Under the pieces are notes generated by a model. That model saw nothing but the letters and a program-made list of their open reading frames with translations, had not been told where the DNA came from and did not search any database. The translations under genes and the position numbers were made by a program. Below, in pieces: positions 1,965 to 24,800 of a stretch of DNA of 29,248 nucleotides. Every line of letters starts with the position of its first letter. Within the stretch, counting starts at the first letter, position 1. The stretch spans positions 1 through 29,248 of the forward strand of contig CAZFEA010000001.1 of NCBI GenBank assembly GCA_964518085.1, read 5' to 3'. This DNA comes from an uncultured Dehalococcoidia bacterium. Lineage in GTDB: Bacteria > Chloroflexota > Dehalococcoidia > JACQUA01.

Positions 1965-3194
1965 ATGAACAGGCTGGTACAAATTGAAGACTACGAGCCG
2001 CTGGTTGGGCCGGAGGTGATCGAACGCATCAGACGCAAAGCCTGGCCATTGCGTGACCTTCATGTTGTCAATTTCAACTCCACGTATCATGGCGGCGGCG
2101 TGGCCCAGCTTCTTTCATCTCTGACGCTTCTCATGAACTGCCTGGAAATTAAGACCGGGTGGCGGGCTGTTTTCGGCCCTCCGGACTTCTACAGCGTTAC
2201 CAAAAAGATTCACAATGCCTTGCAGGGCGCGGATATGAATCTGAGTGAACGGAAGATGCAGATCTACGAGGAGGTGATATACGAGAACTCGGTGAGGAAT
2301 CATCTCGATCACGACATAGTAGTCGTGCACGACCCGCAACCGCTTCCGTTAATAAATCACTATCGGAAAGATTCGCCCTGGGTCTGGCGCTGCCACGTCG
2401 ACCTGACCAACCCAAACCCGCAGGTATGGGATTACCTGGTCCGGTTCGTCGAAAAATATGATGCCGTGATCCTGAGCAGCAGGGATTATGCCCGGAAGTT
2501 GAAAACACCCCAGTTGTTTTTTATGCCGGCCATTGACCCGTTCTCCATTACCAACAAGGAACTGAGTGACGGCGAGATGACCGAGCGCCTGAATCACTAC
2601 AGCATTCCCACGGATCTTCCACTGGTGGTGCAAATATCCCGTTTTGACCGCTGGAAAGACCCGGAAGGGGTCATCAAGGCTTTCAAGCTGGTGAGGCAAC
2701 ACATCGAGGCCACCCTGGTGCTGGTAGGAAATGTGGCCGACGACGATCCCGAGGGGCAGGCGGTCTATAAGTCACTGCTTGAACATTGTGGCGAACGCAT
2801 CATCATGCTTAGCGTCCAGGATGGCGCCCTGGTGAATGCCCTTCAGCGGCGTGCTGCCGTGGTGCTGCAGAAATCAATTCGCGAGGGTTTTGGCTTGACG
2901 GTGGCCGAGGCCATGTGGAAAGGAACGCCGGTTATTGGCGGCAACGCCGGGGGCATACGGTACCAGATACAGGATGGGGTAAACGGCTTTCTGGTGTCCT
3001 CGATTGAAGACGCGGCGCAAAGGATTGTCCAGGTTGTCAGGGACAAAGATTTGCGGATGCGGTTGGGGCAAAAAGCCCGTGAAACGGTCAGGGCCAACTT
3101 CTTGCTGACTCGCTACCTGGAACAGTATCTCGACCTGTTCAGCGCCTTCGAGCCACAATTCGGGCTATCCAACAAGATACGGGCTTACCGGTGA
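1965..3194 (+). CDS. treT: GT4 glycosyltransferase, TreT-type trehalose synthase
   Basis: Motifs NSTYHGGGVA, HNALQG, HDPQP, WRCHVD, SRFDRWKD, QKSIREGFGLTVAEAMWK. RBS GGGAGAG. Confidence 0.8.
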   Translation: MNRLVQIEDYEPLVGPEVIERIRRKAWPLRDLHVVNFNSTYHGGGVAQLLSSLTLLMNCLEIKTGWRAVFGPPDFYSVTKKIHNALQGADMNLSERKMQIYEEVIYENSVRNHLDHDIVVVHDPQPLPLINHYRKDSPWVWRCHVDLTNPNPQVWDYLVRFVEKYDAVILSSRDYARKLKTPQLFFMPAIDPFSITNKELSDGEMTERLNHYSIPTDLPLVVQISRFDRWKDPEGVIKAFKLVRQHIEATLVLVGNVADDDPEGQAVYKSLLEHCGERIIMLSVQDGALVNALQRRAAVVLQKSIREGFGLTVAEAMWKGTPVIGGNAGGIRYQIQDGVNGFLVSSIEDAAQRIVQVVRDKDLRMRLGQKARETVRANFLLTRYLEQYLDLFSAFEPQFGLSNKIRAYR

Positions 3195-3197
3195 CTC

Positions 3198-4484
3198 TCA
3201 ATTCAGCTTTTGCGCCAGTATTCCGGTTAACCCCAGGTCGTCGATTCGTTTTCTGATGTCACTGACGGTTTGCGGGTAAAGTCCCAGCCTTATCATCCGC
3301 TCAAGATAGTCCCCCTGGCCGGGACGGCAAAGCTGGTTCAGTCCCTCCTGGGTCCGGTTTAACTCACCCGTGAAACTGATGTAGTCCCCTATCGCGGTGG
3401 TGGCAGGCAAAACGGGTGGTCCGGTGCCGGCCACTTTTCTTGAGGCGTTATGTCCGGCAATGACACCCATGATCATACAGGTGTCCACGCCGCCGATCGG
3501 CCCGATCTTTTCACCACCGACAAAAAGGTTGTCGAAACCTGGCACCCTCAGGCTGTCGTCCCGGTGATGGATGGATACCTCTTTGACGAAGGTATGGACA
3601 CCGCCGCCCATGGGGTCTTCGATCATGGCTGTCTCAAAACCGGGTATGGTGCGCAGGTCGGCCACAGACATATAGCCCATTTTCGAACACTTGGCCATAG
3701 AGCCTATGTCGGAAAGGTTGACGTGCTCGACTTCCTCGTGGGACGAGATATTGGCCATCTTGCCGGCTTTCGAGTAGTCTACGAGGTGTTTGGGAAGGGG
3801 AATCTTCATCTGTCCTTTTTGCTCGAGCTCTTCCCTCAACTCCTTGCCCAGGCTGGCTTTGCTCAAACAGACCGCCAGGCCGAGGAGACCCCTGGTGCCG
3901 TCGGCCCTTCTCTGACTCAACTCCCTGGCCCCGGCTTTGGTGGCGATGCTTACCCGGTTGCCGAACGTGGGACACCTGAAGCTTCCGCACATGACGCATC
4001 CCAGGCCGTAGCGCCGGCAGATGTCCATCCCGCCGGTGGTGCCGGTGCAATCGACAAAGGCGCCGCCTCGCAGGACTTCGCCGCTGGCGAGCCGGACCGC
4101 CTCCAACCGTCCATCCTCTGTCAGCACATCAACCGCCCGGCTCATGAATCGTATGTCGACTCCACAGTCCAGGACCAGTTTCTTGACCGCTGGCTCCGCC
4201 AGGGCGCAATTGTAGATGTATCCGTATTCCATGTCCGGCTCATATAGCCGGTGAAGAATGATGGCGTCCAGTACATCCAGGATATCGCCGCCGGCCATGG
4301 CCCTGAGCTCTTCATTCTGGACCATCCGCCCGGTCATGTTGTAATGTCCGGCTCGGTTTCCTCCGGCCAGAAGCATGTCGGTCCGTTCCAGCAAAATCGC
4401 CTTGAGTCCGGCCCTGGCCACGGCGATGGCCGCGCCACAGCCGGCAAATCCGCCCCCTATGACTATGACAGTGTCTTTAGACAA
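3198..4484 (-). CDS. FAD-dependent oxidoreductase, GidA/TrmFO-related uncharacterised family, with a Cys4 motif
   Basis: VIGGGFAGCGAA Rossmann motif; C-x6-C-x2-C-x4-C (CRRYGLGCVMCGSFRC); C-terminal LFVGGEK...AGHNA. AGGAGG overlaps GTG4490, so TTG4484 (5 nt after the RBS) is the likelier start. Confidence 0.75.
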   Translation of the reverse strand: MSKDTVIVIGGGFAGCGAAIAVARAGLKAILLERTDMLLAGGNRAGHYNMTGRMVQNEELRAMAGGDILDVLDAIILHRLYEPDMEYGYIYNCALAEPAVKKLVLDCGVDIRFMSRAVDVLTEDGRLEAVRLASGEVLRGGAFVDCTGTTGGMDICRRYGLGCVMCGSFRCPTFGNRVSIATKAGARELSQRRADGTRGLLGLAVCLSKASLGKELREELEQKGQMKIPLPKHLVDYSKAGKMANISSHEEVEHVNLSDIGSMAKCSKMGYMSVADLRTIPGFETAMIEDPMGGGVHTFVKEVSIHHRDDSLRVPGFDNLFVGGEKIGPIGGVDTCMIMGVIAGHNASRKVAGTGPPVLPATTAIGDYISFTGELNRTQEGLNQLCRPGQGDYLERMIRLGLYPQTVSDIRKRIDDLGLTGILAQKLN

Positions 4485-4513
4485 ATGCACCTCCTGGGAG
4501 TATTGGCTATCTC

Positions 4514-5074
4514 TCAGGCGAACTGGATCATCCCCAACTTGGTGAACTGAATAGGAACAGTGACCTCGGGCGGAAGTGCCCCGAGTTGATGGAGGGCATA
4601 TTCCTGCTCGTATTTTGTCATGGCCATGACCCCATCTATCGGGATGATGGTCTCATAGCGATAGATGCGCGCTGAGGCGGTAGCGGTGTAAAGCACCGCC
4701 ATGTTGGTGGCCGCCCCGACGATGACCAGGTTCTCTGTCTGCTTGTCCTTCAACAGGCCGTCGAGTTCGCCGCCGGTGAATTTGTCGAAGCCGTTGGGGT
4801 GGATGACTGGCTCGGTTTCCCGTTTCTTCAGGGAGGAGGCAGGCTCTCCCCCGGGTGTGCCCTTGTGGATAAGGGAGATGGTGTAAATAACCGGCACAGC
4901 CAAGGCCCGCGCCCTTTCCAGGAACTCGCTTACACCTGGAAGGAGCAAAGAGCAAAAGACCCTGGGGTCCTGGCATCTGGCGCTCAGATCGAGCACAATA
5001 ATGGCGGTCTTGTTCCGGGCGAGGGTGACTGGCTTTGGCTCCGGTTTGCGGGGTCCACCGTCTTCTATGATCAT
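4514..5074 (-). CDS. Isochorismatase/cysteine-hydrolase fold protein lacking the catalytic Cys
   Basis: TAIIVLDL (Asp), FDKFTGGELDGLLK, LVIVGAATNMAVLYTA, IPIDG. RBS AAGGA. Confidence 0.8.
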   Translation of the reverse strand: MIIEDGGPRKPEPKPVTLARNKTAIIVLDLSARCQDPRVFCSLLLPGVSEFLERARALAVPVIYTISLIHKGTPGGEPASSLKKRETEPVIHPNGFDKFTGGELDGLLKDKQTENLVIVGAATNMAVLYTATASARIYRYETIIPIDGVMAMTKYEQEYALHQLGALPPEVTVPIQFTKLGMIQFA

Positions 5075-18084: not shown

Positions 18085-19220
18085 TCATTTACGCAGGGCG
18101 GAGAAAATCTCGCCTACCCTGTCGCGGATCGCCGCCTGGGTGCGCAGGTAGGCTTCATCGGGAACGCTCGCCCCCGCGGGTGGCAGCACCAGCGGATCGA
18201 AACTGTCGGTGGGAACATCCACTCGCTGCGACGGGAAGCCCTGGGCCGGGGCCCACACCGAGGCGCCTTCCTTGCTCACCAGCCAGTTGACAAAGAGTTT
18301 TACCGCGTTGGGGTGAGGGGCCTTATCGAAAACGAAGAGATTACCGGCGCCCGAAGCCAGGAAAGGCGGCTCCTTCAAAATGGTGAAAGCTATCGGGGCG
18401 CCCAATTTCTTGAACTCGGTGAACATGGCCGAGCTCTGTCCGATGCCTACAGGGTATTTCCCGCGGGCCACCCATTCCAGCATCATGCGCTGGTCCCTGG
18501 TCATGACCGGTTCATTGGCCGCCAACTGGCGCAGTATTTCCAGCGTCCCGTCGACGCCGAAGATTTCCTTGGCCATGAGGGTGATGAAGCTGAGGGATGC
18601 GCCGGGGACGGCCGGGTCCGACAGCACCATCTTGCCCTTCCACTTCGGCCCGACGTAATCCAGGAAGGAGGTTATTTCTCCTTCCCTTATTATGTCGGTG
18701 TTGTGGATAGAGGGCCGGTTGGCCATGGCCACAGTTACCAGGAGATGGCGGTCTTCGTCCAGGTAGGGAATCTTCCCGTTGCGCCACCTGCCCGGGTCGG
18801 TGACCTCGGGCAAGACCAGCAGTTCCGGCAGGGGAACAGTGATCGCCATGGGCTTGATGTCAACAAAAAATGGACCGTTTCCGGTCAGGCCGGCGTCGGC
18901 CCAGTAGAGTCCGGCCCTTCTCTCGGCCTTGATCTTGGCAATGACCTCGGTGGCGCGTCCCTCAGTGGCTTCGATGTCTATGCCGAATTTTGCCTTGAAG
19001 GCCCGCTGGATGGCGGCTTTGGCCGGGCCCCAGTCCGAGCCAACAGGTTCACCGTGCCCTCCTTCTGGGCGGCCTTGACCAGCTCGTCCCACGAGTTGGC
19101 CGGGGGCGCCGGCGCCCTGACCGGCGGCGTGGGGGCGCCCGTGGGCTGGGCCGGCGCCGCGCAGGCGACGATCAGGACCATCAGAAACGCTGCACCAATC
19201 AAACTTGAACACTTTTTCAT
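18085..19220 (-). pseudogene. Solute-binding lipoprotein paralog split by a 1-nt deletion at about 19039-19041
   Basis: ATG19220 (RBS AGGAG) gives MKKCSS...IVAC...QKEGTVNLL in one frame; the homologous remainder SDWGPAKAAIQRAFKAKFGIDIE...FSALRK is in the -1 frame. Junction: GTG AAC CTG TTG GC TCG GAC TGG. Confidence 0.8.
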
Positions 19221-19328
19221 CGTATCTCTCCTTGCCTCGCAGATTAACAACGAATGGATCGGGTCATGCGCCTGAGGCGTACCATCAAGGACGAAAATTG
19301 GCCTATCAACGCGAGGAGGCCCGATTTC

Positions 19329-19420
19329 CCTCCCCCTTTCGCAAAAGGGGGATACAGGGGGATTTGCCCTGGACAGCTTTTTTTCAAATCCCCCTTAGTC
19401 CCCCTTTTTCAAAGGGGGAG
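19329..19420. repeat. Inverted pair of family-1 REP-like elements (REPIN/BIME-like)
   Basis: 19331-19365 forward and 19386-19419 reverse, 20-nt spacer; the reverse copy matches 1693-1726 at 32/34. Confidence 0.85.
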
Positions 19421-20287: not shown

Positions 20288-20323
20288 CCCCTCACCTTAA
20301 TCCTCTCCCTCAAGGGGAGAGGA
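20288..20323 (-). repeat. REP-like element family 2 (TCCTCTCCCC-TTGA-GGGAGAGGATTAAGGTGAGGGG)
   Basis: Matches 24192-24227 at 34/36 in inverted orientation; contains the TAA stop of the 20297-21997 gene. Confidence 0.85.
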
Positions 20324-21997
20324 AACCGATGTCACGCCATAGATGCTTTTCGCCGCTTCGGCGGTGATGTACCCGTTCTCCAGGTCCGCCAGCACTTTGC
20401 TTCTCCCCCGCTCATGCGGGTCGCCGACTCCGCCGCCGCCGCACAGCTCGAGCCGCAGGATGTCACCCGATTTCAAGATAACATCCCCGACGCGGGCGGG
20501 CAACCGCCGCTCGGTGGGAGAATCCGGGTTAACTATCGCCGCCCCCCTTCTGCCCGCCATGCCTCCCCCGACCCCCCAGGGCTCCATGACAAACTTGTCG
20601 CTCCGGGTGCTCAGCCGGGTCTCTTCGCCAAGCATGAGATATTCCCGGACATAGCCCGGGCCACCCCGGAATTTGCCCGGACCGCCTGAATCGGGAATGA
20701 GGTGAAATTGCAGGAACCTCACCGGGAACTCTGCTTCCAGTATCTCCAGCGGGGCCAGTTTTATCGCCTGGTTGCTGCACCTCAGGCCGGCCCCGAATCC
20801 CCCGTCGTCCCCGTCCACCGCCCCGGCGCCGGAGCGGAGTATTTCGTATTGCACGTAGGACTGCCCCGCTTCGGTCCTGCCGCCCATGGCCATGGTCTGG
20901 CCGCCACCGCTGCAGGCGATGGCTTTTCGTCCGGCCAGTTTGGCCAGGGTGGCCACGACCATTTCGGTGGCCAGTATCAGCGTTTGGGCGTAGCAGTTGA
21001 CCGGCGCCGGAAGGGCAGGGTTGGTAACTGTCTTCTCGCCGCAGTTAACCGCGATGCAGCGGTGCAGCCCGTAGTTATTGGGCAGCCTGGGGTCGACCAT
21101 GGCAATCACGCCGTAGTAGCAGGCCGCCCTCACCAGGGGCGGACGGAGATTCACCGGCCCCTTGCATTGCGGCGCGCTGCCGGAGAAATCGAAAAGGACC
21201 CGGTCTTGTTCCTTGACCACGGAAAGGTGAAGCCTGACCGGCCTTTCCAGGTCAATGCCGTCGTTGTCCAGGAAAGCCTCCATTTCAGCCCGGCCGTCCG
21301 GCCACCGGGCGATCTCGGACCTGACCCTCTTTTCAGTGATGTCGAACAGTTCTTCGAAACAGCCCAGAACCAGTCCCTTGCCGTACTTGTTCATCAGGTT
21401 TTCGACCCGCATCTCCCCCAGGCGGCAGGTGCCTATCTGGCCCTGGATATCGCCCAGCACCACGTCGGGCGTTCTGCTGTTGGCCCTTATGATTGCCTCG
21501 ATTTCTTTCGACAGCTTCTGCCCGCGGGCGCATTTTACCGGTGGAAAGTGAATCCCCTCGTGAAATATTTCCCGCGCCTGGCCGGACCCGCTGCCGGGGA
21601 CCAGTCCGCCCAGGTCGCTCTTATGGGCCATGCTACCGCAAAAACCCACCAGTTCGCTGTCATGGAAGACGGGGGTAATTACCGCCATGTCCATGGCGTG
21701 CGGGCTTCCTCCGAGATAGGGATGGTTTACCAGAAAGGCGTCGCCGGGGGCGATTTCTTCATAGGGATAGCTTTGCAGGAGGGATTCTATGATCGCCGGA
21801 AACGACCCGATATGGAAGTAAATGGTGATGTGCTGGCCAACCAGCCTGCCCTTCCGGTCGAGGATGGCGCAACTGGCGTCTTGAGACTCGCGGATAATAG
21901 TCGAATAGCCGGTCCGGAACAGCGACGTCTCCATCTCCCGGACTATTCCCGAAAGACTGCTGCTTATTACTTCAAGGGTTATGGGGTCAATGGCCAT
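20297..21997 (-). CDS. Hydantoinase B/oxoprolinase family subunit (second paralog, no gamma fusion)
   Basis: DPITLEV, STIIRESQDASCA, NHPYLGGSPHAMD, AHKSDLGG, HEGIHFPPV, GPGKFRGG, GGGGVGDPHER. Confidence 0.92.
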   Translation of the reverse strand: MAIDPITLEVISSSLSGIVREMETSLFRTGYSTIIRESQDASCAILDRKGRLVGQHITIYFHIGSFPAIIESLLQSYPYEEIAPGDAFLVNHPYLGGSPHAMDMAVITPVFHDSELVGFCGSMAHKSDLGGLVPGSGSGQAREIFHEGIHFPPVKCARGQKLSKEIEAIIRANSRTPDVVLGDIQGQIGTCRLGEMRVENLMNKYGKGLVLGCFEELFDITEKRVRSEIARWPDGRAEMEAFLDNDGIDLERPVRLHLSVVKEQDRVLFDFSGSAPQCKGPVNLRPPLVRAACYYGVIAMVDPRLPNNYGLHRCIAVNCGEKTVTNPALPAPVNCYAQTLILATEMVVATLAKLAGRKAIACSGGGQTMAMGGRTEAGQSYVQYEILRSGAGAVDGDDGGFGAGLRCSNQAIKLAPLEILEAEFPVRFLQFHLIPDSGGPGKFRGGPGYVREYLMLGEETRLSTRSDKFVMEPWGVGGGMAGRRGAAIVNPDSPTERRLPARVGDVILKSGDILRLELCGGGGVGDPHERGRSKVLADLENGYITAEAAKSIYGVTSVSSPLEGED

Positions 21998-24077
21998 GCT
22001 TATTCAAATCCGCTTCCTTCACTGTAATGATAATGTTTCCATACCGGTCGACCCGCCCCGACTGGCCGGGACAGATGACCGTGGACGAGTCCATCTGCTC
22101 AATGACACAGGGCCCCGGGATCAGGTGACCGGGCCCCAGCAAATCCCTTTCATAGATAGGACATCCGGCGTCGCCGCCGAACTCGCCGAAGTATAAATGC
22201 CTGTGGCCCTTGACCGCGGCCTCCGGGCCGCGGGCTGCCGGTGAGGATTCTTTGATAGCCAGTTTGGGTACCTTGACCTGCGACACCACGCGGTAGTTGA
22301 CGATGTCCACCGGGGCCGCCTCGGCCTTGTGGCCAAAGAGTTTTTCGTGCATTTCGTCAAACCGTGACCTTATCAACGCCAGGTCCGGCTGCTCAAGATG
22401 TCCGCCCGGTGCGGGTACGATAAGCTCATATCCCTGGCCGGAATAGCGCAGGTCCAGGTAGAACGTCAGATCCACCTCAACCTCGGAGAAGCCCTCATCC
22501 AGCAATTCGCGCACTGCCTGGCTCTTCAGGTCATCGAACTGGGCGTTGACTCCATCAACACGCGTTTTGGCCAGGGACTGGAGTCGTGACCGGGCATAAT
22601 CATGCCTGACGTCCGACATGAGCAGACCCATGGCCGAGGTCAACCCCGGCGCCGGGGGAACGAGGACTGTCGGAATTCCCAGGGCAGCCGCCAGCATGCC
22701 GCCGTGGACCGGCCCGGCGCCGCCAAAGGCCACCAGGGCAAACTGGCGCAGGTCGTAGCCCCTTTCCGAGGAAACCGCCTTTATGGCCTGCTCCATGTTC
22801 ACATTTACGATTCTCAGGATGCCCTCGGCCGCCTTGACTGTGTCGATACCAAGAGGAATCCCGATCTTTTGCCTGATGGCTTCTTCTGCCCGCTGCCTGT
22901 TCAGCTTTATCTTGCCGCCCAGGAAATTTTCGGCATTGAGGTATCCCAGCACCAGGTTGGCATCGGTGACCGTCGGATCGGTCCCGCCCTTGTCATAGCA
23001 GGCCGGGCCGGGGTCGGCGCCGGCGCTTCGCGGCCCCACTTTGGGTACCCCCAGGTTGTCGATCCAGGCGATGCTGCCGCCCCCCGCCCCGATGGTGTTG
23101 ATGTCTATCAGCGGAGTGGCCGCTTCCCATTTCCCGACCTGTCCGGTTGTTACCTGTACCGCTTCGCCGTCTTCCAACAAGGCGATGTCCGAGCTGGTGC
23201 CGCCAACATCGAAAGTGATGGCATTTCGAAAACCCGCCCGCACCGCCAGTTCCCTCCCGGCGATGACCCCCGCTGCCGGTCCCGACAGGATGGCGGGCAC
23301 CGCTTTGGTTGAGGCCATGCCGAAGGTTGACACCCCCCCGTTGCATTGCATTACATAACGTTCGTTGGTGACCACCCCAGCCTGTACCAGCTTCTGCTGT
23401 ATATTGCCCAGGTACCGGGCCAGAACGGGGGCGATGGAAGCGTTCACCAGCGTCGTGGAAAGTCGCAGGTATTCGCGGATTTGGGGGATCACTTCCGTGG
23501 ACAGAGAGACCGATATTGCCGGATATTGCTCCTTGATGATCGCTTTGAGCCGGGTTTCATGCTCCGGGTTCATGAAGGAATGCAACAGGCATACCGCTAT
23601 GGACTCGACATTCCTGTTCACCAGCCGGGCCACGGCCTCCCGGGCCTGTCGCTGGTCGAGAGGGGTCAGTACTTTTCCTCGGAAATCTATCCTCTCATGG
23701 ATATCCTCGCAGAAACGTGGTTCGAGCAGGCCTTTCGGCATCTCGGCATAAAGGTCGTAAAGGCTGGGACCGGTCATGGCCCCCTGGTAGATGTCGTTGA
23801 TCCCGCGAAGGCCCCCGGTCACCAGGGCGCCGACCCTGGCGCCCCTGTCCTGGAGCAGGGCATTGGTGCCCACGGTAGTGCCGTGGGAAAAGAAGGCGAC
23901 ATCCGCCGGTCTCACCTTTTTCTGGAACAACTGCTTCATCCCTGCATCCACTGCTTCCGAGGGGTCCCTGGGCACCGAAGGCACCTTGATGTGAAGTACG
24001 TCGCTCGTCTCCTCGTTGAAGATGACGAAGTCGGTGAAGGTGCCGCCGACATCGACTCCGATTCTGTAGCGTGCTAT
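21987..24077 (-). CDS. Hydantoinase A/oxoprolinase family subunit (second paralog); apparent ATA start codon
   Basis: Frame extends 31 codons upstream of the track's GTG23984 and includes RIGVDVGGTFTD. AGGAG is 7 nt before ATA24077; in-frame TGA at 24095-24093. Motifs HGTTVGTN, SGPAAG, DVGGTS, GAGGGSIAW. Confidence 0.88.
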   Translation of the reverse strand: MARYRIGVDVGGTFTDFVIFNEETSDVLHIKVPSVPRDPSEAVDAGMKQLFQKKVRPADVAFFSHGTTVGTNALLQDRGARVGALVTGGLRGINDIYQGAMTGPSLYDLYAEMPKGLLEPRFCEDIHERIDFRGKVLTPLDQRQAREAVARLVNRNVESIAVCLLHSFMNPEHETRLKAIIKEQYPAISVSLSTEVIPQIREYLRLSTTLVNASIAPVLARYLGNIQQKLVQAGVVTNERYVMQCNGGVSTFGMASTKAVPAILSGPAAGVIAGRELAVRAGFRNAITFDVGGTSSDIALLEDGEAVQVTTGQVGKWEAATPLIDINTIGAGGGSIAWIDNLGVPKVGPRSAGADPGPACYDKGGTDPTVTDANLVLGYLNAENFLGGKIKLNRQRAEEAIRQKIGIPLGIDTVKAAEGILRIVNVNMEQAIKAVSSERGYDLRQFALVAFGGAGPVHGGMLAAALGIPTVLVPPAPGLTSAMGLLMSDVRHDYARSRLQSLAKTRVDGVNAQFDDLKSQAVRELLDEGFSEVEVDLTFYLDLRYSGQGYELIVPAPGGHLEQPDLALIRSRFDEMHEKLFGHKAEAAPVDIVNYRVVSQVKVPKLAIKESSPAARGPEAAVKGHRHLYFGEFGGDAGCPIYERDLLGPGHLIPGPCVIEQMDSSTVICPGQSGRVDRYGNIIITVKEADLNKHGH

Positions 24078-24109
24078 TGGCCGTCTCCTGACTCAAATGA
24101 GGGTAGGGC

Positions 24110-24139
24110 ATAGTAGCACGCTGAATTTTGTGTTGTCAA
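24110..24139 (-). promoter_or_regulatory. Sigma70-type promoter for operon C
   Basis: Minus strand TTGACA (24139-24134), 18 nt ending in TGc, TACTAT (24115-24110). Confidence 0.65.
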
Positions 24140-24153
24140 ACGCTGAAAAGCTG

Positions 24154-24174
24154 GCAGCATGATATAATTGCTGC
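24154..24174 (+). promoter_or_regulatory. Extended -10 promoter (TGaTATAAT) framed by the inverted repeat GCAGCA-N9-TGCTGC
   Basis: TATAAT at 24163-24168 with TG at 24160-24161; arms at 24154-24159 and 24169-24174; upstream of the toxin-antitoxin pair. Confidence 0.55.
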
Positions 24175-24191
24175 AAAAATACCACGCTGTC

Positions 24192-24227
24192 TCCTCTCCC
24201 CCTGCGGGAGAGGATTAAGGTGAGGGG
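24192..24227 (+). repeat. REP-like element family 2, second copy
   Basis: TCCTCTCCCCCTGCGGGAGAGGATTAAGGTGAGGGG; both differences from 20288-20323 fall in the hairpin loop region. Confidence 0.85.
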
Positions 24228-24286
24228 ACGTCATTTCACCAGTATCACGGTACAAACGATCATCCCAAAGTGCGGGAGAGGAACCC

Positions 24287-24502
24287 ATGGTAACACAGGA
24301 CGCGACTGTTGAAGTATTCTGGCGAGCTTATGAAGCGCTGAAACCGGCGCAAAGGCGAAAGCTGGCGGAACGGATCCTGAGGGACAGCCAACTATTGGAA
24401 GACCTGGGTGACCATCTGCTAATCGAAAGAGCGAAGCGGCTGAAGGGAAAAGCTCTTACTCTTGACGAGTACAGGTCCCAACGCCGTCTTGCAGATGGAT
24501 AG
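24287..24502 (+). CDS. Putative type II antitoxin
   Basis: 71-aa helical protein 2 nt upstream of a RelE-like toxin; C-terminal ...ALTLDEY pattern typical of RelE partners. Confidence 0.65.
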   Translation: MVTQDATVEVFWRAYEALKPAQRRKLAERILRDSQLLEDLGDHLLIERAKRLKGKALTLDEYRSQRRLADG

Positions 24503-24504
24503 CT

Positions 24505-24759
24505 GTGTTTACGGTACTTCTGGAGCCATCCGCCCAGCGTGATCTGAAGAAGCTAAGCAAGTCAACCGGGGATAGAGTGGAGGCCGAACTGGTCAGGCTC
24601 CAAGCAGACCCACGGCATCAAGGCGTGAAAAAGCTAACAGGCTTCGAAAACCAGTGGCGGTCGAGGGTTGGCCAATACCGAATTCTGTACGAAATAGAGG
24701 ACAATGCGTCTAAGGTTCATGTCTACCGGGTAGCCCACCGGAGCGAAGTGTATCGGTAG
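24505..24759 (+). CDS. relE: Type II toxin, RelE/ParE family
   Basis: 84 aa; AQRDLKKL, KKLTG, WRSRVGQYRILYEI, VAHRSEVYR. Confidence 0.88.
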   Translation: MFTVLLEPSAQRDLKKLSKSTGDRVEAELVRLQADPRHQGVKKLTGFENQWRSRVGQYRILYEIEDNASKVHVYRVAHRSEVYR

Positions 24760-24800
24760 CGGGCAAGGTGCCCGGGCCTGGTTGCCTGCGATACCGGCCG

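Follow-up and report, generated by a model that had tools for sequence, protein, structure and literature searches.

Where does translation of hyuA2 begin, and is the codon found there still in use? The window, a stretch of 29,248 nucleotides from an uncultured Dehalococcoidia bacterium, carries on its minus strand a gene for a hydantoinase/oxoprolinase A subunit whose N-terminal motif, DVGGTFTD, includes DxGGT, the phosphate-binding motif of ASKHA-type ATPases. An earlier note observed that this motif (24053-24030) is encoded upstream of the first GTG (23984-23982), as is indeed the case, and proposed that the gene starts instead at an ATA, to be explained as rare AUA initiation, as a recent lesion of an ATG or as a base-call error. 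The features on which the question turns are these, all on the minus strand:

24134-24139, the -35-like hexamer TTGACA, which jointly with the -10 matches consensus at 10/12 positions, with an 18-nt spacer
24110-24115, the -10-like hexamer TACTAT, with TG just upstream (extended -10), from the promoter scan
24093-24095, the in-frame TGA that closes the upstream frame
24085-24089, the Shine-Dalgarno sequence AGGAG, 7 nt before the ATA
24075-24077, ATA, the proposed AUA start of hyuA2, at the homologous Met position and identical in the contigs of four runs
24060-24062, ATC, an alternative near-cognate codon 3 codons before the Asp of DVGGTFTD, without a Shine-Dalgarno sequence and an unlikely start
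24030-24053, DVGGTFTD in translation, the N-terminal phosphate-binding motif of the ASKHA-type ATPase domain
23982-23984, GTG, the first canonical hyuA2 start in the open reading frame listing
21987-24077, hyuA2, hydantoinase/oxoprolinase A subunit, from its Pfam domains and its match to 7hk5
20297-21997, hyuB2, Hydantoinase_B subunit by Pfam, which shares its first 11 nt, ATG included, with the end of hyuA2

Read on the minus strand, the TGA is followed by GTC AGG AGA CGG CCA, by the ATA, and then by GCA CGC TAC AGA ATC GGA GTC GAT GTC GGC GGC ACC TTC ACC GAC; translation across the region gives VRRRP-I-ARYRIGVDVGGTFTD, and from the ATA onwards (I/M)ARYRIGVDVGGTFTD. The hyuA2 frame has no ATG, GTG or TTG from the TGA up to the GTG at 23984-23982. 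That GTG, 31 codons past the ATA and within the Hydant_A_N domain, opens an ORF of 665 aa (21987..23984), and the public gene call begins 3 codons further on, at GTG 23975 (662 aa, beginning MPRDPSEA). From the ATA the frame runs for 696 codons without an internal stop. The claim that ATA is the only start-like codon between the TGA and the motif thus holds for the canonical codons, but it overlooked the ATC at 24062-24060, which has no Shine-Dalgarno sequence (SD).

A misread base is one conceivable answer, and the source MAG is of a kind to invite it, being fragmented and contaminated (3.5 Mb spread over 517 contigs, completeness 89%, contamination 5.9%): the organism itself might have ATG, hidden by a sequencing or assembly error. 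The region is, however, present in four groundwater-metagenome runs, all from one study and one of them possibly the source sample, and in each a Logan contig spans position 24075 with 0 differences from the window: 24027-24210 at depth 30.8 in run X1, 23485-24114 at depth 24 in X2, 23510-24096 at depth 3.2 in X3 and 23778-24163 at depth 3.1 in X4. The sequencing runs listed for the region include no RNA run. The four runs were assembled separately and agree at 24075 in long error-free contigs, two of them at depth 24-31, with no variant or bubble listed there; the sole variant listed in 23400-24800 is an A>G at 24267, which is intergenic. None of the four contig sets has the C at 24075 that would read as ATG, and their concordance effectively refutes the base-call error entertained in the earlier note; we give that explanation almost no credence. 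As far as the contigs show, the organism truly carries ATA at 24077-24075. Rare variants are lost in contigs, so an ATG allele in the minority may have gone unseen at this position.

The encoded protein points to the same codon as the place to begin. HyuA2 matches Hydant_A_N (E 3.9e-45), Hydantoinase_A (E 7.7e-92) and Hydant_A_C (E 1.3e-17), all passing the curated cut-offs, and position 1 of the Hydant_A_N model falls on residue 5 counted from the ATA. In the comparison with the N-methylhydantoinase 7hk5 (E 2.8e-140), RIGVDVGGTFTD matches residues 3-14 of that protein without a difference; because this is the 7hk5 N-terminus, either GTG start would delete the first beta-strand together with the DxGGT motif. 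Only the ATA (or the ATC), and not the first GTG, places DxGGTxxD within ~10 residues of the start. The three-domain architecture is that of the A subunits of N-methylhydantoinase, 5-oxoprolinase and caprolactamase (PDB 7hk5, 6yra), and the gene of a HyuB partner adjoins hyuA2; the best non-self protein match is only 59% identical.

Alignment places the ATA in the column of the first residue in 67 of 116 full-length homologues. At the four nearest loci (two of them paralogues within this genome, the other two from a same-class genome; 52-58% identity) the DNA has ATG exactly at the ATA position, and their N-termini read MNRYRV, MPAYRI, MKRWRI and MARYRV, against (I)ARYRI in hyuA2. A canonical start is found nearby in 18/18 other HyuA loci examined; likewise, among this genome's 16 HyuA paralogues with the N-terminal motif, 15 have an ATG, GTG or TTG 6-9 codons before it, hyuA2 being the sole exception. 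The ATG-to-ATA change that the earlier note had raised as one possibility is therefore well supported, since the ATA lines up with the initiator Met in most homologues and in all four nearest loci: on this comparative evidence, a single G-to-A transition would have turned the family's ancestral ATG into ATA and left the surrounding initiation signals intact. The genome as a whole holds ~19 HyuA-like genes in its 3.5 Mb. The subgroup to which hyuA2 belongs is small, consisting of C32, C330 and two genes in the same-class genome G029, and it was not found in same-genus or same-family genomes.

Translation might instead begin elsewhere, and three sites might be invoked: the ATC at 24062, which is a near-cognate codon; GTG 23984 or GTG 23975, the latter used in the public call, either of which would give a truncated protein; and an out-of-frame ATG (24111-24109) that begins a 138-codon ORF and from which a frameshift could lead into hyuA2. 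Against these, no well-placed SD precedes the ATC or either GTG, and DVGGTFTD is lost with either GTG. The ATG too has no SD, and it overlaps the -10 hexamer, so that it would fall outside the transcript. We therefore hold a start at any of these sites to be highly improbable. Frameshifting from ATG 24111 was rejected, no slippery or stop-stalled shift site being found in the overlap, and so was read-through of the TGA at 24095-24093, as homologues begin at the ATA column.

The signals around the ATA are much as the earlier note described them, with an AGGAG (24089-24085) 7 nt before the codon and a near-consensus promoter further upstream. Across the genome the spacing between AGGAG and start peaks at 5-9 nt, and that of hyuA2 is typical. 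The promoter-like site (24139-24110) comprises TTGACA, an 18-nt spacer and TG-n-TACTAT and matches 10/12 positions of a sigma-70-like consensus; it is the 1 such site found in 23900-24800, where shuffled sequences lead one to expect 0.5. The SD is an ordinary 5-mer, whereas the conserved ATA, ATT and ATC starts of the lineage have extended SDs, which suggests that hyuA2 has undergone no compensating adaptation to its ATA. Folding of the 5' leader is unremarkable (z 0.37), with neither SD nor ATA strongly sequestered. The tRNA scan yielded only 31 tRNAs and one CAU tRNA, a count that reflects an incomplete MAG and is uninformative on the initiator tRNA. At the other end of the gene, hyuB2 (Hydantoinase_B, E 6.1e-150) begins within the 11-nt overlap; its ATG (21997) has no well-spaced SD, the sole SD-like stretch being ~14 nt away, and it is probably translationally coupled to hyuA2.

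Near-cognate starts are also found elsewhere in the lineage. The first is that of infC, whose non-canonical start is the classical IF3 case: no ATG, GTG or TTG precedes the IF3_N domain, and the gene starts ATA TTT AAA GA in this genome (G000), in a same-genus genome (G001) and in a same-family genome (G002), with ATA also in the same-class G029 (G000:C438, minus strand, about 1735-1760, locus L070; also L072, L073 and L074). An acyl-CoA-synthetase-like gene (CoA_binding_2 + Succ_CoA_lig; G000:C311:983-2380, L040:61-1458; also L064 and L065) has ATC, ATC and ATT starts in three genomes that span two genera, the near-cognate codon lying 7-8 nt past AAGGAG(G) in a leader with no canonical start; the first ATG would truncate the CoA-binding domain. 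The third is pnp, for PNPase (G000:C190:1437-3659, L036:61-2283), which has no canonical start before codon 94 and whose product can be aligned with that of E. coli from residue 10 onwards; its start must be an ATT 8 nt past AGGAG or, upstream in the same frame, a CTG 4 nt past GGAGG, as no other is available. In the same-genus genome pnp has ATC at the same spot and an ATG two codons later, and in all other relatives examined it has a canonical start.

These cases are few. A strict scan gave 3 genes with an ATA, ATT or ATC start among ~2,240 long ORFs, infC being a fourth, found separately, and Pfam checks of 17 other candidates left just pnp and the CoA_binding_2 gene in need of a non-canonical start. 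Candidates in PGM, aminotransferase and GrdB genes were rejected, canonical starts sufficing for each. Enrichment of ATA, ATT and ATC in ORF leaders was gauged with A-rich codons as controls: genome-wide, ATA behind a strong SD occurs 9 times against 3.6 expected, and the control ACA 7 times against 2.6, so that the excess is uninformative. To judge from these genes, AUA initiation in the lineage is real but rare, and no genome-wide habit.

The loss of the canonical start codon is by itself a mark of a pseudogene, and hyuA2 bears it. Its body bears no other: the open 696-codon frame and the conserved columns give no sign of further disabling lesions or of relaxed constraint, a result that is blind to recent loss. 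At columns conserved at >=95%, HyuA2 differs in 8 of 170, all conservatively, as compared with 8-9 in its nearest relatives. Searches of proteins, species genomes and contigs brought up no orthologue above 59% identity, the best match in same-genus and same-family genomes being 39-40%, and contigs from metagenomes and genomes, scanned for the exact pattern with the variable base set to N, yielded nothing. The neighbouring frameshift that the earlier note took as a hint of decay is real in the assembly and lies ~2.8 kb downstream, past a REP element and another gene. It affects a solute-binding lipoprotein gene (18085-19330, minus strand; 18085-19220 is also given) in which, as assembled, the signal peptide, lipobox and ~60 codons are in one frame and the remainder in another, the frame changing at about 19000-19060.

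How much initiation an AUA can sustain has been measured in several bacterial settings, with widely differing results. Reporters in E. coli gave 0.02-3% of the AUG level (10.1101/063800). Behind an SD the yield is often higher, at 7-30% of AUG output (PMC5499595, PMC13009471): ~15% in T4 rIIB and 7.5% in HB-3 hydrolase (PMC5499595), and about 10-30% in ccpN and citZ of S. aureus, where infC also has AUA (PMC13009471). The efficiency of the ccpN start varies with growth medium, and the AUA of citZ is confined to one strain lineage, NCTC 8325 (PMC13009471). Among the near parallels to hyuA2 is citZ, each being a metabolic enzyme gene with AUA behind an SD, that of citZ lineage-specific and not family-wide (PMC13009471); initiation at the S. 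aureus starts, however, was demonstrated by Ribo-Ret and luciferase fusions and their SDs are extended, whereas the proposed start of hyuA2 has a plain AGGAG. The rIIB mutant arose by the same AUG-to-AUA transition and is a hypomorph with ~15% translation, not a null (PMC5499595), but it is a laboratory mutant in phage and E. coli, while the hyuA2 ATA is a natural allele of an uncultured groundwater bacterium. In E. coli infC the near-cognate AUU/AUA behind an SD is discriminated by IF3 and serves translational autoregulation (PMC5499595, PMC13009471). This organism's infC has ATA as well; the infC codon, unlike the singleton in hyuA2, is shared between genomes and follows a regulatory logic already understood.

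With moderate confidence we favour a weak AUA start produced by the ATG-to-ATA transition. Ribosomes most likely still initiate at the hyuA2 AUA, given the promoter-like site, the AGGAG and the intact 696-codon frame; near-cognate starts in the lineage, the ATA of infC included, together with the intact gene body, favour a working weak start. Transcription would begin just past the -10 hexamer and yield a leader of ~26 nt, whose AGGAG the 30S subunit would bind. Initiator tRNA would then pair with AUA at the cost of a third-position mismatch, and proofreading by IF3 would reduce initiation, by analogy with the measured cases to roughly 1-30% of that at AUG and in an IF3-sensitive manner. The predicted N-terminal peptide is (M)ARYRIGVDVGGTFTDFVIFNEETSDVLHIK or ARYR.... 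Translation of hyuB2 would rely on ribosomes that finish hyuA2, and both subunits are probably lowered by the weak start, because hyuB2 shares 11 nt with hyuA2 and lacks a properly spaced SD.

The transition might instead have silenced the gene, making hyuA2 a young start-loss pseudogene, with hyuB2 lost through coupling and the ~19 paralogues permitting drift. We take this as a serious rival, though a less probable one. Among 16 paralogues with the N-terminal motif hyuA2 alone lacks a canonical start; with ~19 HyuA-like copies the loss of one is cheap; the want of an orthologue in the same genus or family implies that relatives dispense with the cassette; the SD has not been strengthened; and the solute-binding-protein gene (18085-19220) is frameshifted as assembled. 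The frame is nonetheless open and its conserved columns kept as in the nearest relatives, the promoter and SD are intact, and the ATA allele is seen in all four samples; if the gene is dead, too little time would have elapsed for additional lesions. On translation itself, AUA output can drop to 0.02-3% of AUG in E. coli, whereas the lineage initiates at AUA in infC and starts measured behind an SD often retain 7-30%. Of the alternatives that the earlier note set side by side, the change of an ancestral ATG is well supported and a working weak start is favoured, though such a start is not separable from decay on these data.

Selection may, conversely, keep the weak, IF3-sensitive AUA, holding the ATP-consuming HyuA/HyuB enzyme low or tied to growth as has been proposed for ccpN. 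Conserved ATA, ATT and ATC starts do exist in the lineage, and the medium-dependent efficiency of the ccpN AUA (PMC13009471) offers a precedent. A selected start should nevertheless be looked on as unlikely: no hyuA2 orthologue above 59% identity carrying ATA was found, close relatives and paralogues have ATG or other canonical starts, and the SD is not extended, while the ~19 paralogues, the relatives without the cassette and the frameshifted gene 2.8 kb downstream also argue against it. Were it correct, hyuA2 would join the small set of genes initiated at ATA, ATT or ATC (infC, pnp and the acyl-CoA-synthetase-like gene), and HyuA/HyuB output would be tied to translational state.

Whether it is a working weak start, as we favour, or a dying one, the ATA has a practical consequence. 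Standard gene finders take only ATG, GTG and TTG, so the public hyuA2 call sets in 34 codons too late and cuts off the ATP-binding motif, and HyuA2 seems defective or partial as a result. The same annotation problem affects infC, pnp and the acyl-CoA-synthetase-like gene, here and in relatives, whose starts are conserved or unavoidable. ATA, ATT and ATC starts are already known, and hyuA2 opens no new mechanism; the case is bacterial and sporadic. It shows a natural change of start from ATG to ATA in a single gene out of a very large family of paralogues, and could capture either the tuning of expression or a gene beginning to die.

Two further observations concern sequence near the start. A palindromic REP-like element lies at 24183-24227; its core, CTCTCCCGCAGGGGGAGAGG, has ~186 two-strand matches in the MAG (roughly 90 copies), and in the groundwater runs the element reaches a summed contig depth of ~7000 over many unrelated contigs. 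The DNA coding for DVGGTFTD (24011-24057) is present in many other contigs too, and in the larger two of the four runs its summed depth comes to ~2,800-4,700: this groundwater community is very rich in hydantoinase/oxoprolinase A genes.
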